Below, in pieces: positions 32,201-63,536 of a stretch of DNA of 64,000 nucleotides. Position 1 is the first letter of the stretch, and the number at the start of each line of letters is the position of its first letter. The notes under the pieces are model-generated. The model saw only the letters and a program-made list of their open reading frames with translations. It did not search any database and had not been told where the DNA came from. The DNA is from a virus. The position numbers were made by a program, and so were the translations under genes. The DNA lies in IMG/VR virus record IMGVR_UViG_3300045988_154312, positions 128,001 through 192,000 of that record; one strand, 5' to 3'.

Positions 32201-33690
32201 AGACAGCTTTGCCATACGTCGCTGATATGGTGGCAAGTGCTCTTGGCAAGGGCAACAAATATTCTTTAGCAAAAGAAGCAGGTTTTATCTATAGCGAAAA
32301 CTGTTTCGCTAAGGAATATCTTGATGAATTGGCTGATCAATTCGGCGAAGAAAGATTGTACGTGCCTGTAACTGTTTACGGCCGTGATAACGTTGCATTA
32401 AATATGTACCGCTACCACGACTTCGAAACAGGTCGTGAAGGAGAGTACGTATCTTTCTTCGACGGAATTAGCAGCGACAACTGCTTGTTCTTAAGCGAGA
32501 AGATTTGCGGTCAATTCGAACTTTTCCGCAAAGGAAACACAGCTTACGTCATGAAAGACGTAAGAGATTCCTTTAATGCAGTAGAATTGAAAGGACGAAT
32601 CGCGTTGAGAACTCGTACGGAAAATGCATCCGATGAGATCTTTAAACTCGTTAAGTGGAACGCTTTTGCTCCTGTGGAACAAAAGGCAGAATTCTATTTA
32701 ATGAGCAGTAGCTGTGCTCGTTCTAAAGGAGCTTTGTGGTACGGCAAGAATAAAGAAGCCATTGGTGATGGCTTGTTCATTCTTGCTTCTGGCAGCAATA
32801 AAGTTCCTAAAGGCACACCTATGCAAGTGTGCAAGTTTGATAAAGAAGGCGGTAAATACGTCTTCAATCAAACTGGCGAAGGTAAATTTGCTATTAAGGT
32901 GAACATTGATGAGTTGTGCTTCAACTATATCGATGAAAACAAAGATAGCAAAAAGAACACTATTCTCTTGTTGATGACAAAACAAGAGTCTTGTGTTGTA
33001 TTGCCAGATCCAGAAAAACCTTTAGTAGAAGAAGTTAACGAAACTCCTACTGTTGAAGTCGTAGCAAAGGCCGGAGACTCTGCTACGAAGAGCGAATGGT
33101 TAAGCATGGATAACTATAAGCGCGAAGAAGGCGCGATGGTTATCTGTGCGACTGGCCATCGTTCAGATAAATTAGGTTGCGGCAAGGGAGATGATTGGAG
33201 CTCCAAATCTCCTAAGCTACAACCTGTTCGCGATAGAATCGAAGCGAAACTTCGTTCTATCCTCGATTTTCAAGTCCTAGCGGGCGAAAAGAAATTTGAG
33301 TTGATCAGCGGTATGGCGTTAGGCGTTGACCAACTGTTCTTTAGCGTAGGGAATCAGTTACGCAAAGAATATGCTGAGCAAGGTATTACAATCGTATTAA
33401 CGGCTGCAGTGCCTTGCATTGAGCAAGACGGCATATGGAAAGACGATTGCAAAATCTCATATGCTGCTATGCTTAAGGCAGCTGACAAAAAAGTTCGTAT
33501 TTCTAATAAGAAGTACGAAGACGATAAAGGCTGCATGCAGCGCAGAAACCGTTTCATGGTAGACAATGCCGATATGGTATTGGCTTACCATGATGGAAGC
33601 GAAGGCGGTACTAAGAACTGCATCGACTACGCAAAGAGCATCGGTGCAGTAATAGAGAACGCCTTCGAGGGTCCGGAGGAAAATAAATAA
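29221..33690 (+). CDS. Giant protein with an RdRP/YonO-like two-barrel polymerase signature (DxDxD) fused to a C-terminal YpsA/DUF1273 SLOG domain
   Basis: SD GAGGAGGAG. FRNPHAGE (aa 608-614), then CCGGSDYDTDSYVV (D676/D678/D680). The last ~185 aa align motif by motif with B. subtilis YpsA. Basic N-terminal ~130 aa. Confidence 0.85.
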   Translation: MKKVNVTTNNTIVKAAGMELVAPTVAVVIKENARVSKRVRKSLVCKRREEVKKAKAFAAYVTALKKVAQNEPAVVPSDNRKSQKKRAGRAQQRCIVAAKELLQQQRSNELEARKLRREKGLVFKPIGLITRKISPIEKAALSVKPSQHLLESVNVLDNRPSINVRCVVAHKMKKSFIYTMKVTSINRCGIFSDIDVKAGAVVETGVFNAKGSIEDFTKSLVKDICLDTFVFDFGELKGSDITDAFEELAEMKGFADLLPTAASPSQIRGNQLILCREDLGYAVIDRVHLLTGKLTAGKGELSVGKAAKLLTRAGQPNVAGKELKIDLDKEYFIVVDSFNKGDNFDGQSFHNHEWFCEGYGLPFFFDTYHQSRLMYMAKEGSQPLSREVINRWGKELVVSDKAYICGNNAAKIGRAKDFKNIWVVGNVDGECISIHDLNGWKASPAEQQAAEQEILKVMAFTHETPAVIGSQPLQFTMIDKAHRSLIAEYAVKQKVAEFERSIEAVLKGGDTGLAIDAGLMVDYNSSIKNNVILASKMAAIADKAAKILEGPSFEGQKESRSLKGVVDPTLLFLDKGLLKEGEVVVSDRTYKAMKRNDGLHQLVCVIFRNPHAGEFYRARIISVSMFKKRILGLQVKYNLFTEIELAVVLNAVKMLNDNCLITTGTDYFKSCCGGSDYDTDSYVVCVYEDAAIFSHRIERSVHIPSEMGADKIVVWNRHDQLVVEVWKNAMKATKTDVGSYATIIAKSSGLLAEPAGSAEVKNAFKLIKEDALSARKVAIDKELISGDEEVQYEGFYEEGKNIGEKDISNEKLQNIYLSYVQSHLTPRETMRWLLDILLTGPAAMGMIIDIPKTQLTVNIPSGDLFERLSLMRKKFQPKIAENDGKFVAATFDFKVKKYVASANPSTCGGFITSLGGQERYYISDVLYRDIMVPTAKAMAEVMNRVAKELGYKGRSEGERNLENKVVEMGNLILEDCRKSIFSVDADGVTVNNLKTALPYVADMVASALGKGNKYSLAKEAGFIYSENCFAKEYLDELADQFGEERLYVPVTVYGRDNVALNMYRYHDFETGREGEYVSFFDGISSDNCLFLSEKICGQFELFRKGNTAYVMKDVRDSFNAVELKGRIALRTRTENASDEIFKLVKWNAFAPVEQKAEFYLMSSSCARSKGALWYGKNKEAIGDGLFILASGSNKVPKGTPMQVCKFDKEGGKYVFNQTGEGKFAIKVNIDELCFNYIDENKDSKKNTILLLMTKQESCVVLPDPEKPLVEEVNETPTVEVVAKAGDSATKSEWLSMDNYKREEGAMVICATGHRSDKLGCGKGDDWSSKSPKLQPVRDRIEAKLRSILDFQVLAGEKKFELISGMALGVDQLFFSVGNQLRKEYAEQGITIVLTAAVPCIEQDGIWKDDCKISYAAMLKAADKKVRISNKKYEDDKGCMQRRNRFMVDNADMVLAYHDGSEGGTKNCIDYAKSIGAVIENAFEGPEENK

Positions 33691-33713
33691 CCCTCCGGGT
33701 CCCCCCTTCTACG
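33690..33713 (+). promoter_or_regulatory. Hairpin (accc-TCC-gggt) + CCTTCTACG element directly after the polymerase stop codon
   Basis: The same CCTTCTACG 9-mer follows a GC hairpin at 36709-36738, also directly after a stop codon. Confidence 0.4.
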
Positions 33714-33912
33714 TTAACCGAAGTAAGACGTGGGAGGAACGACAATTACATATGAAGATACAGGAGTATATTTATCATTCTACGATAGATGTGCTCTGGC
33801 ACTGCTGTGCCGAAATTTTATTTGAGATTTATAAGGGATTTTCCCTGCCGGGGGCCTCCTGACGGAGAGTCCCCTGCGGGGCAAGTCCTATATAAGTCGA
33901 AGTTGTGTTTCC

Positions 33913-33933
33913 GGACTCCGTCCCGAAACATTC
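33913..33933 (+). promoter_or_regulatory. Hairpin-TCC-GAAA motif copy (variant)
   Basis: ggac-TCC-gtcc followed by cGAAACATTC. Confidence 0.35.
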
Positions 33934-34003
33934 TTTGAAGCAGTTATGCATATATATGCGTAACTGTCTTTAGTGAAGATATTGGGCGTTCTGCGATAGA
34001 AAT

Positions 34004-34025
34004 GTCGCTCCGCTCCGAAATCATC
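34004..34025 (+). promoter_or_regulatory. Hairpin-TCC-GAAATC motif copy (degenerate stem)
   Basis: gtcgc-TCC-gctcc-GAAATCATC. The flanks match the consensus but the stem is weak. Confidence 0.3.
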
Positions 34026-62082: not shown

Positions 62083-62368
62083 GCTAAGTGCTATTAATAG
62101 AATTAATAATGAATTATTGAATAAAGATATGTTCGCAGGCAATTGTATCGTTAAAGAAAAAATTCGTTGCGATAATATTTTAATGCTAACAATCGAAACT
62201 GATTACGATATTAATTCTGCATATTTAGTTTCATTAAGCGATACATATCATGTGAATATCGAATATAGTATTAGCAATCATGTCGATCATATAAAACATA
62301 GTGGTATTATTGTATTCGAACATAATAAAGCTGAAATCGTAGAAGAAAAGAAATTTACATATGAATAA
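62054..62368 (+). CDS. Hypothetical small protein
   Basis: Overlaps upstream gene by 29 nt. Confidence 0.5.
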   Translation: MVGRIKFTGKLSAINRINNELLNKDMFAGNCIVKEKIRCDNILMLTIETDYDINSAYLVSLSDTYHVNIEYSISNHVDHIKHSGIIVFEHNKAEIVEEKKFTYE

Positions 62369-62819
62369 AAAATTAAATCGAAAAGTATTTTTCTCGATCA
62401 AACATAATATGTTAATGAATTCATTTTGTCGAGACTATAAGTTTAAAAACTTTGAAATTTCGGCTTATAAGACAAACATAAGATTGTTTAATAAAGAAAC
62501 CAAATTGTTAAAAATTGCTAATAGTTGTAAAACGTTAGAAACGTTAGTTAATACATACGAAGAATTAAGACAAGTCGGTATGATTATATGGCTATTAGGC
62601 TTTTACGCATTTCAATTAGATAAAGATTTAGATGTTAAAAAACATTTTAAACTATTCGAAGAAATCGAAAAAGTAACATTAACACAACCATTAAACTTAA
62701 GTCCAGACGATATTCAGATCCGTCAGTTAAGAGAGTCGTTAGAACAAGCAGCCAATAGAATTAATGCACAAATAAATTTTTGGTCGAATATACTTCCCGA
62801 AAGGAATGGTGGTCGATGA
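62361..62819 (+). CDS. Hypothetical small protein
   Basis: Overlapping start. Confidence 0.55.
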   Translation: MNKKLNRKVFFSIKHNMLMNSFCRDYKFKNFEISAYKTNIRLFNKETKLLKIANSCKTLETLVNTYEELRQVGMIIWLLGFYAFQLDKDLDVKKHFKLFEEIEKVTLTQPLNLSPDDIQIRQLRESLEQAANRINAQINFWSNILPERNGGR

Positions 62820-63493
62820 ACGGAAGTTTACGTAATTTATTTAAACGTCATCGTCAAAACTTTAATCCAGAAAGTTTATTACGCGATCTAAAAAAAGATC
62901 AGAATAAAAAAAATCTGGTCGATAAAATTAAAGAAATGGAGGAAACTAGGAAAGCAGAAGTGTTAGAACCTGAACGAAACAACTATCCTCAGTGTAAGGT
63001 CGATTTGGTCGCACAAGTACAAAAAGAAATCGAAGAAGAAAATACTCCGAATGAACCGGCGGACGATATTCAAGAAATTTCAGTACATGCTGATTGTCCG
63101 ACCGTATCGTTAGATAATTGGACGACAGAAGAACTTGTGCGATCGATTCAAAAAGGTAAAGAAGCCGCTAAACATATCTTACAAAATTATGAGTTCTGGA
63201 ATAGTATGGTCAAAGAATGCGATCAGGCATTAGGCGATTTGCGTCATTTCGCAGAATTCTACGACGATGCGACACAAGAAGAAATTAATAAAGTATATAC
63301 CTTAATGACAGAGTACAGTCGTAAACGTCGTGTATATAAAGACCGTGTCGAAATCTTTAAAGACATGTTTGCTGGCAAAACTAGATTTGAAAATATCTAT
63401 GCACCAGTTAATCAAATGTCTAATAAATTTAATAAGATGAATATTGAGCGTCAGTATTCTCCACGGATACTTAAGGACTTGTTCGAGCGTTAG
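62816..63493 (+). CDS. Hypothetical protein
   Basis: ATGA overlap start (MNGSLRNLFK...). Less AT-biased composition. Confidence 0.6.
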   Translation: MNGSLRNLFKRHRQNFNPESLLRDLKKDQNKKNLVDKIKEMEETRKAEVLEPERNNYPQCKVDLVAQVQKEIEEENTPNEPADDIQEISVHADCPTVSLDNWTTEELVRSIQKGKEAAKHILQNYEFWNSMVKECDQALGDLRHFAEFYDDATQEEINKVYTLMTEYSRKRRVYKDRVEIFKDMFAGKTRFENIYAPVNQMSNKFNKMNIERQYSPRILKDLFER

Positions 63494-63515
63494 TCACGTT
63501 CTACATTATCCTTCT

Positions 63516-63536
63516 GGGGCTCCGCCCCGAAATCAC
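63516..63536 (+). promoter_or_regulatory. Hairpin-TCC-GAAATCAC motif copy
   Basis: ggggc-TCC-gcccc-GAAATCAC. Stem polarity is reversed relative to the 37699 copy (gcccc/ggggc). 73 nt upstream of ATG 63589. Confidence 0.5.

Follow-up and report, generated by a model that had tools for sequence, protein, structure and literature searches.

The locus and its hairpin motif

The DNA examined here, a 64-kilobase (kb) window of a viral genome (positions 128,001 to 192,000 of the IMG/VR record IMGVR_UViG_3300045988_154312), derives from a ~230-kb phage with a circular map, for which near-identical and related contigs of 215-235 kb are present in many human metagenome assemblies. Genes for a DnaE-type polymerase as well as tail and baseplate genes are found in the first 33.7 kb, which end with an open reading frame (ORF) for a candidate RNA polymerase of 1489 amino acids (aa). 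Downstream of it extends a region of small ORFs (33.8-64 kb), and a short hairpin with a conserved 3′ flank recurs between the genes of this region (Table 1). This motif may represent a set of promoters of the type known from bacteriophage N4, in which a DNA hairpin is read by a phage-encoded RNA polymerase. The analysis covered ~74 kb of the ~230-kb genome, i.e. the window and 10 kb beyond its end, together with ~40 related stretches that were fetched for comparison; among the GenBank phages searched, no close relative of the window phage was found.

In its fixed register, the motif has the consensus NNN-C-(T/G)CC-G-N′N′N′-C-GAAAT(C/T)(T/A)(T/C), which comprises a stem of 4 base pairs (bp) with an invariant C:G closing pair, a loop of 3 nucleotides (nt) that ends in CC, an invariant C and the sequence GAAA. 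A G in front of the stem can pair with the invariant C preceding GAAA, by which the stem is extended to 5 bp in 31 of the 85 distinct copies known from the phage family. The loop has 3 nt in 10 of the 11 window copies and 4 nt in the other one. A covariance model of the motif (R1), run unfiltered over both strands of the window, returned exactly 11 matches of 23-40 bits, with the next best candidate at 9.9 bits; in the related stretches, the same model led to a set of 160 copies, 85 of which are distinct. All 11 copies reside between 33.8 and 63.5 kb on the plus strand, which is also the strand of nearly all ORFs. A separate scan, in which hairpins had to combine a TCC loop with 4 bp or more of stem and a following (C)GAAA, detected seven perfect copies on the plus strand and none on the minus strand. 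In comparison with 500 composition-preserving block shuffles of the window, 9 perfect copies were observed versus 0.002 expected. The octamer GAAATCWC by itself is not enriched in the window (8 occurrences versus 4.7 expected), and hence the non-random feature is the combination of hairpin and flank.

An earlier note on this stretch had listed nine copies, all of which were recovered at their positions, while the model adds two that had been missed (33798 and 36713). The copy at 36830, which the note had described as a 6-bp stem with a cgcc loop, is genuine, but its register had to be corrected, since it fits the fixed register with a GCC loop. The copy at 34004 had been regarded as degenerate. 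This is true for the present genome, yet its orthologues in relatives possess perfect GGAC/GTCC stems. The three GC islands that had been pointed out were also found: the motifs at 43224, 57588 and 63517 have 62-67% GC within flanks of 26-33% GC. On a larger scale, the GC content amounts to ~38-43% around the polymerase gene and the motif cluster (26000-40000) versus 22-27% in the small-gene array (40000-64000), and this high-GC block folds unusually strongly, with a mean minimum free energy (MFE) of 44-nt windows of -9.2 versus -3.8 kcal/mol.

Table 1. Motif copies and associated features of the window (stem, loop and flank separated by hyphens; hairpin 2, the second hairpin downstream of the motif).
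Feature	Position	Model start	Strand	Sequence and context
Candidate two-barrel (RdRP/YonO-like) RNA polymerase	29221-33690		+	1489 aa; directly upstream of the densest motif cluster
C-TCC-G hairpin without CGAAAT	33690-33700		+	ACCC-TCC-GGGT; overlaps the polymerase stop codon; C/T-rich run next
Copy 1 (variant)	33798-33819	33795	+	GGCAC-TGCT-GTGCC-GAAATTTT; 5-bp stem, 4-nt loop; 23.2 bits in the covariance model, outside the training set; repeat family D5
Copy 2	33913-33932	33909	+	GGAC-TCC-GTCC-C-GAAACATT; long hairpin next at 33935-33973
Copy 3	34005-34024	34001	+	TCGC-TCC-GCTC-C-GAAATCAT; stem decayed here, 2/4 pairs; hairpin 2 at 34027-34048; 35.3 bits in the covariance model
Copy 4	35967-35987	35964	+	GACGC-TCC-GCGTC-GAAATGTT; hairpin 2 at 35991-36009; start codon 36044 preceded by a Shine-Dalgarno site
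Copy 5 (variant)	36713-36732	36709	+	CCCC-GCC-GGGG-C-TAAACCTT; TAAAC in place of GAAAT; 3 nt past the stop codon at 36710; then a very stable hairpin at 36736-36774 (-19 to -26 kcal/mol)
Copy 6	36830-36852	36829	+	(CGC)CCCC-GCC-GGGG-C-GAAATCTT; hairpin 2 at 36856-36873; start codon 36904 preceded by a Shine-Dalgarno site
Copy 7	37341-37360	37337	+	CCCC-TCC-GGGG-C-GAAATCTC; hairpin 2 at 37363-37389; no called gene before the next copy
Copy 8	37699-37719	37696	+	GCCCC-TCC-GGGGC-GAAATCTC; hairpin 2 at 37724-37746 with G.U pairs; ~205-nt leader to start codon 37918
Copy 9	43224-43243	43220	+	GTGC-TCC-GCAC-C-GAAATCTC; 64 nt before gene 43287
Copy 10	57588-57607	57584	+	GGGC-TCC-GCCC-C-GAAATCTC; between a gene ending at 57538 and a gene starting at 57654
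Copy 11	63516-63536	63513	+	GGGGC-TCC-GCCCC-GAAATCAC; then a small hairpin, then a terminator-like hairpin with T run at 63552-63577
Canonical intrinsic terminator (example)	35560-35600		+	others at 35172-35195, 37073-37102, 38630-38646, 39366-39412, 39737-39756

Covariation and conservation in the phage family

The closing pair (positions 8 and 12) is C-G in all 85 distinct copies, and the CC of the loop and the sequence CGAAA likewise never change across the ~40 related contigs. In the three outer pairs of the stem, GC, CG, AU and UA replace one another. Double changes were found in 120 cells as opposed to 48 +/- 4 in shuffles, none of which (0/500) reached the observed value, and stem pairing collapses once the partner columns are slid out of register. 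Moreover, stems differ between genomes at one and the same site: at position 35967, ACGC/GCGT, CCCC/GGGG, GGAC/GTCC or TGAC/GTCA stems are embedded in nearly identical flanks. Since stems are swapped with pairing kept, even at single orthologous sites, it is the pairing itself that is selected. The compensatory changes that the earlier note had read from the window copies are thus borne out massively in the relatives. The loop is TCC (template strand GGA) in ~75% and GCC (template strand GGC) in ~25% of the copies.

The motif also proved largely specific to this family. Public collections were scanned for the flank pattern CTCCGNNNCGAAATCTC, and a complementary stem was then required. In viral contigs, such a stem accompanies 46 of 128 flank matches, all but one of which belong to this phage family, and 17 of 106 matches to a flank variant ending in CTT. 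In bacterial and archaeal genomes, the stem is present in 2 of 120 matches, which equals the chance rate (1 in 64). No Rfam family matches the motif at gathering scores or at E <=1.

A dispersed repeat of the MITE or REP type, selfish or neutral and without a role for the phage, could in principle spread such hairpins, and a TnpB/IS605 OrfB gene lies within the phage genome ~6 kb past the window end (~69.5-70.6 kb; L125 16688-17779). The differing stems at orthologous sites might be taken in the same sense. This origin is nevertheless highly improbable, as the copies hold orthologous positions in genomes with polymerase genes that are 25% to 100% identical, all share one orientation and maintain both the invariant positions and the pairing over 85 distinct sequences; no target duplications or insertion polymorphism were seen.

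Placement relative to genes and terminators

As judged from the covariance-model scan of the window and the relatives, the copies are not random with respect to gene boundaries: all 11 window copies are intergenic, at an intergenic fraction of the window of 0.26 (P ~4e-7). They are part of a cassette with the order motif, conserved RTG, second hairpin (hairpin 2), Shine-Dalgarno (SD) site and start codon. The conserved block 3′ of the stem reads CGAAAT-(C/T)(T/A)T(C/T)T-RTG-RGG, in which RTG constitutes the 5′ edge of hairpin 2, while the sequence of hairpin 2 varies between sites. In 50 of the 69 unique gene-preceding copies of the family, the G of GAAA is 54-67 nt away from an SD-preceded start codon, and this spacing applies to several non-orthologous sites. 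A second placement class is characterized by a 205-nt leader, and in the remaining family copies, a non-coding stretch with strong structure comes next, with another copy after 74-198 nt. The distance to the next start codon had previously been proposed to be similar for five window copies. It amounts to 64-77 nt for the start codons 36044, 36904, 43287 and 57654, whereas the fifth, 63589, lacks an SD site, was passed over by the metagenome gene caller and has a strong terminator-like hairpin in front of it. The orthologue of this last copy in a relative (L018) has a different stem and a normal cassette. Copy 9 is the first element past a 3.5-kb ORF-poor stretch, and the gene at 43287 behind it opens a 14-kb array of small genes.

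Upstream of the motif, the picture is less regular. The distance from the preceding stop codon varies from 3 nt to ~3.5 kb, and no conserved element was found upstream of hairpin 1 in the copies compared. A sigma-70-type promoter at this place was considered and rejected, with no -10 element at a consistent distance. Between 33 and 44.5 kb, 34 canonical intrinsic terminator-like sites were detected versus 6.4 expected; these are located at gene ends, separate from the motif, which results in a terminator-motif-gene order (e.g. terminator 35560-35600, motif 35967, gene 36044). Hairpin 1 shares with intrinsic terminators that it is GC-rich and intergenic, but it has a stem of only 4-5 bp and continues into C-GAAAT instead of a T run, just as the earlier note had stated.

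Conceivably, the motif could still be a terminator or insulator for a phage polymerase that ignores host-type terminators, and would then shield the downstream units. The three tandem copies after the long polymerase gene, the pairing of copy 63516 with a host-type terminator and the position of the copies 36713, 37341, 57588 and 63517, 3-49 nt after a stop codon, would be in line with such a role. However, the spacing is fixed to the downstream start codon and variable to the upstream stop codon, terminators are already present in the 3.5 kb of non-coding DNA ahead of the copy at 43224, and the conserved block runs 3′ into RTG and hairpin 2, which would be needless for a terminator. We consider this function improbable.

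No copy occurs at 1-33.7 kb or at 63.5-73.5 kb, and all copies found in the relatives, including those at sites absent here (L152, L158 and L167), lie in the region syntenic to the small-ORF region. The motif therefore marks one regulon of ~30-40 kb and not the whole genome. A CRISPR-like array is ruled out by the irregular spacing of the copies, which ranges from 74 nt to 14 kb.

Resemblance to N4 promoters and DNA mini-hairpins

To our knowledge, DNA promoters in the shape of a hairpin have essentially been described for N4-like phages only, where they serve a T7-like virion polymerase. In the N4 genome, the early promoters of this enzyme (gp50) read GTTGC-TTC-GCAAC-TTATGG (P1), GAAGC-TCC-GCTTC-TTTTGG (P2) and GCTGC-TCC-GCAGC-TTTTGG (P3) on the non-template strand. 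Like these, the motif described here combines a short GC-rich stem and a 3-nt loop with a conserved single-stranded tract 3′ of the stem; in both cases, the loop-proximal positions are invariant and the outer stem pairs are variable and covary. The core is even identical to that of P2 and P3, with C-TCC-G on the non-template and C-GGA-G on the template strand, so that the N4 analogy is closer than the earlier note had it. Furthermore, both lie in the orientation of transcription tens of nt upstream of small genes, which in the present phage would be early genes. The N4 polymerase makes contact with two bases of the template loop, -11G and -10G, and with the closing C:G pair, while the outer stem bases are free if paired. 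A sheared G:A pair lends stability to the template hairpin, which is extruded through the action of gyrase with help from SSB (PMC4496689).

There are also clear differences. The N4 stem has 5-7 bp, and its closing pair is flanked by a conserved G:C, in contrast to 4 (to 5) bp with three free pairs here, and the 3′ flank is TT(A/T)TGG in N4 and CGAAAT(C/T)T in the present family, in which roughly every fourth copy has a GCC loop. Whereas N4 harbors three promoters at its genome end, at least 11 copies are distributed over 30 kb in this phage.

Opposite C-TCC-G, the template strand of the downstream genes reads C-GGA-G, which corresponds to a GNA triloop with C:G as closing pair. Triloops of this kind form extraordinarily stable DNA mini-hairpins (Tm of GCGGAGC ~73 C) with far weaker RNA counterparts, and they occur at N4 promoters and primase origins (PMC13037366). 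The major class of copies agrees with the GCGNAGC mini-hairpins (Hirao) of the G4 and ssiA priming origins and the N4 promoters in the template core C-GGA-G, and the copies 35967, 43224, 57588 and 63516 contain the full GCGGAGC heptamer. Copies with CCCC/GGGG or GGAC/GTCC stems, in contrast, are devoid of its second G:C pair, and those with GCC loops of the sheared G:A pair.

Given the occurrence of GCGNAGC-type mini-hairpins at sites of single-strand replication initiation and the location of all copies on one strand, the template mini-hairpin could alternatively be a signal in single-stranded DNA, e.g. for primase or primosome loading as in G4 and ssiA, for nicking or for recombination. This would leave the tight registration with SD site and start codon and the exclusively intergenic, pre-gene placement unexplained, and no copies are present in the 33 kb that carry the replication genes. 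A role of this kind thus seems hardly probable.

A second hint at DNA-level action is provided by the types of base pairs. In hairpin 1 of the family copies, none of 340 stem cells is a G-T wobble, and the 13 imperfect cells are other mismatches. The hairpin 2 region, on the other hand, has 17% G-U in MFE folds and displays GC/GU/AU series between orthologues. This contrast fits a hairpin 1 stem that is paired on both DNA strands (a cruciform) followed by an RNA stem. The wobble argument is inconclusive, though, since a very short GC stem might avoid wobbles for the sake of stability alone, and the chemical argument from the template-strand DNA mini-hairpin is regarded as the stronger one.

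The candidate RNA polymerase

The gene directly upstream of the motif cluster was proposed in the earlier note to encode a non-canonical RNA polymerase, an assignment that has become credible. The protein matches the Pfam family RdRP (PF05183) with 27.2 bits at a cut-off of 23.8, carries DYDTD at residues 676-680 and ends in a C-terminal YpsA/SLOG domain (YpsA, 54 bits). Two blocks, R..P....GE and GGSDxDxD, are invariant between this protein and remote homologues of 21-28% identity. As these blocks, with a DxDxD loop that is preceded by an RxP motif, are the signature of the catalytic double-psi beta-barrel of the beta' type, the ORF probably encodes an RdRP/YonO-like two-barrel polymerase, a classification that rests on sequence motifs. 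A HMMER search against 1.84 billion representative proteins yielded 10 relatives only. Searches against PDB sequences gave nothing beyond the YpsA domain, tblastn with residues 1-1226 against GenBank phages gave no match, and hhalign revealed no detectable similarity to gp66 of phage phi14:2. AlphaFold models remained at a predicted local distance difference test score (pLDDT) of 30 for residues 130-1290 with 13 sequences and of 52 for residues 500-900 with 22 sequences including the split form described below. With these low-pLDDT models, Foldseek found nothing below E 0.5 in the PDB; the non-significant matches of barrel type included the polymerases P74 gp62 and P32 gp64.

Two forms of the enzyme occupy the same locus, either a single chain of 1468-1498 aa fused to YpsA/SLOG or three consecutive ORFs (~370/466/350 aa) without SLOG. 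The latter form is the commoner one and is found in most family members (e.g. L010 2910-6528 and L011 2135-5732). Although the flanking DNA is ~80% identical, the split form shares only 24-31% identity with the fused protein, which looks like the result of a cassette swap. Relatives retain the C-TCC-G hairpin at the polymerase stop codon (33690-33700), which has TTC as its loop in phages with the split polymerase. Immediately upstream of the polymerase gene, a protein with an RNase H1 N-terminal domain (Cauli_VI, binding RNA:DNA hybrids) is encoded at 28090-28740, which is likewise kept with both polymerase forms (L010 2358-2870). The family is common in human metagenomes, where one of the polymerase subunits accounts for over 100 protein clusters, on contigs of ~215-235 kb. 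One protein of the split-polymerase subunit family (P0115) is annotated from a Mogibacterium diversum assembly on a 45.6-kb contig, which hints at an oral Firmicute host. A distant homologue (P0039) is located on a 4.5-kb contig with ordinary terminators and without the motif.

Divergent two-barrel phage polymerases adjoining or upstream of a small-gene block are likewise known as phi14:2 gp66, SPbeta YonO and P23-45's vRNAP and nvRNAP. Early non-coding regions are reportedly abundant in phi14:2, and no motif shared by the early transcripts of gp66 was found; the promoter of SPbeta YonO is undefined, and those of P23-45 are linear motifs. In the present family, a credible candidate gene for a non-canonical polymerase adjoins the motif cluster in every member. 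A scan that covered larger ORFs of the window revealed no T7-like or N4-like polymerase.

A promoter or an RNA element

Strand bias, intergenic placement, fixed spacing to the start codon, the presence of separate terminators, the lack of conserved sequence upstream and the confinement to the small-ORF region all argue, if indirectly, for promoters. The motif may hence be a set of N4-type DNA-hairpin promoters for a phage-encoded RNA polymerase that drive the small-gene region, to which we assign a probability of roughly 0.5; this region is probably early. DNA-level action, transcription initiation, the start site and the enzyme are what we infer in this model. In N4, the loop centre and +1 are 11 nt apart. 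The GC stem of 4-5 bp with its 3-nt loop would be extruded by negative supercoiling or while the DNA is transiently single-stranded upon entry. The arm on the template (minus) strand, 5′-N′N′N′-C-GGA-G-NNN-3′, would fold into a GNA-type mini-hairpin that is unusually stable in DNA, and the features read by the phage RNA polymerase could then be both G residues of the loop, the closing C:G pair and the neighbouring single-stranded tract that is complementary to CGAAAT. RNA synthesis may start within the interval from the G of GAAAT to the conserved RTG, 5-17 nt downstream of the stem; the N4 register would place +1 on the T of GAAAT. The transcript would begin at or just before hairpin 2, which probably stabilises or protects the RNA 5′ end, and a leader of 55-65 nt would then extend to the SD site.

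The reader of the motif is a matter of its own. The earlier note had assigned the putative promoters to the polymerase encoded at 29221. While strand, placement and spacing support promoters, the motif is identical in phages whose polymerase is split and merely 24-31% identical, and the 1489-aa protein, although the most likely enzyme, can be linked to the motif only tentatively. It is possible, if somewhat doubtful, that a two-barrel polymerase, be it fused or of three subunits, reads extruded template-strand mini-hairpins and has converged on the logic and even the loop of N4.

Several observations weigh against hairpin promoters, or at least against this enzyme as their reader. Consensus, loop ratio and flank of the motif are indistinguishable between fused- and split-polymerase phages, i.e. 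motif and enzyme do not co-vary; they travel together, and either both enzyme forms have the same specificity or there is another reader. Another polymerase could be encoded in the ~156 kb of the genome beyond the stretch examined. The N4 enzyme is T7-like, whereas the only candidate seen here is an unrelated two-barrel, RdRP-like protein, and we know of no hairpin promoter for any two-barrel polymerase. In the GCC-loop copies (~25%), the template GGC cannot form the sheared G:A pair. The copies 33913, 36713 and 37341 are followed not by a gene but by a structured non-coding stretch and another copy, and a strong terminator-like hairpin occurs within 20 nt after copy 63516. In addition, the segment TCTCC/TCTTCT that directly follows GAAA in the conserved flank of the copies (33925-63545) could pair with the downstream SD sequence GGAGGAGA, to which it is complementary, as it does in many MFE folds; this would suggest an RNA role of the flank. 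The better folding of the top over the bottom strand of hairpin 2 in 106 of 118 copies was discarded as evidence because it is largely explained by the G+T-rich composition (random windows of the region display most of the bias, -1.9 versus -3.1 kcal/mol).

Part of these observations would be accommodated by the main rival, an RNA-level element of the 5′ untranslated region (5′-UTR) that is transcribed from further upstream and consists of hairpin 1, the single-stranded CGAAAUCUC and hairpin 2. It could be an endonuclease processing site, a site for processive antitermination, as HK022 put is, or an operator bound by an RNA-binding protein or a translational regulator of the phage. Two hairpins joined by a conserved single-stranded linker at a fixed distance to the SD site would be expected of such an element, as would the pairing of the flank with the SD site and the constancy of the motif despite the change in polymerase type. 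Moreover, the copies 57588 and 63517 lie between co-directional genes, 49 and 23 nt from the preceding stop codon, and must be contained in read-through transcripts, and several copies are found just upstream of terminators in the manner of an antiterminator. HK022 put and lambda nut RNAs indeed consist of two stem-loops joined by a short conserved linker and are located where operons begin, upstream of terminators, but they show no sequence or Rfam similarity to the motif, and the G-U tolerance expected of an RNA helix is missing from the 340 stem cells of hairpin 1, while hairpin 2 makes free use of it. No special stability in RNA is known for a UCC triloop, while the complementary sequence corresponds to the motif of DNA mini-hairpins (PMC13037366). 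In addition, the copies after terminators or long non-coding DNA (35967 and 43224) have no conserved promoter-like element upstream, and Rfam contains no matching family. An RNA element is accordingly a serious possibility that we nonetheless judge unlikely.

If the motif acts in RNA, it would be a new phage-specific 5′-UTR element. If it is the promoter of the two-barrel enzyme instead, it would define the first promoter class by sequence for that lineage, with recognition directly testable in vitro, and would imply convergent use of DNA mini-hairpins as promoters as well as a compact orthogonal promoter/polymerase pair. For RdRP-like two-barrel phage polymerases such as crAss-like gp66 and SPbeta YonO, promoter determinants are unknown or undetectable; in the present family, such an enzyme is accompanied by a motif of 28-32 nt that is sharply delimited and has covariation built in. 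Hairpin promoters themselves are already known, and what would be new is the N4 hairpin logic, even with the same loop, in an unrelated jumbo phage.

Other features of the region

The ORF-poor stretch in front of copy 9 (39.2-43.2 kb) contains a full-length match to Rfam RF03053 (OTKONC sRNA) at 41289-41459 on the plus strand, with 138.5 bits at a gathering score of 141.4 (E 9e-23). Several repeats are found within 39800-42930, namely a hairpin CTCTCTT..AAGAGAG in three copies (39806-39962), three units of ~160 nt with GCGGTGAAAC..GTTTCACCGGTATATTACTCA at 41520-41913, each ended by a terminator-like hairpin on the minus strand, four tandem copies of GATGTATTTGGTCC at 42634-42688 and AT-rich tandem repeats at 42771-42923. 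Two independent assemblies break at ~42.63-42.72 kb, at a 14-mer tandem repeat. A physical genome end near the motif at 43224 could be considered, but the ends of a 229,922-bp contig overlap there, which points to a circular map and possibly to a repeat-induced break.

The TnpB gene past the window end encodes the domains HTH_OrfB_IS605, OrfB_IS605 and Cas12f1-like_TNB, and YopX-domain genes are located close by. Finally, an AT-rich element of ~32 nt, TATGATTATTATATATATTTAAGTTTA, recurs in at least eight copies at 44133-52687, 20-50 nt upstream of where small genes with paralogy to each other start, and may represent either a second class of promoters or a portion of gene units that have been duplicated.

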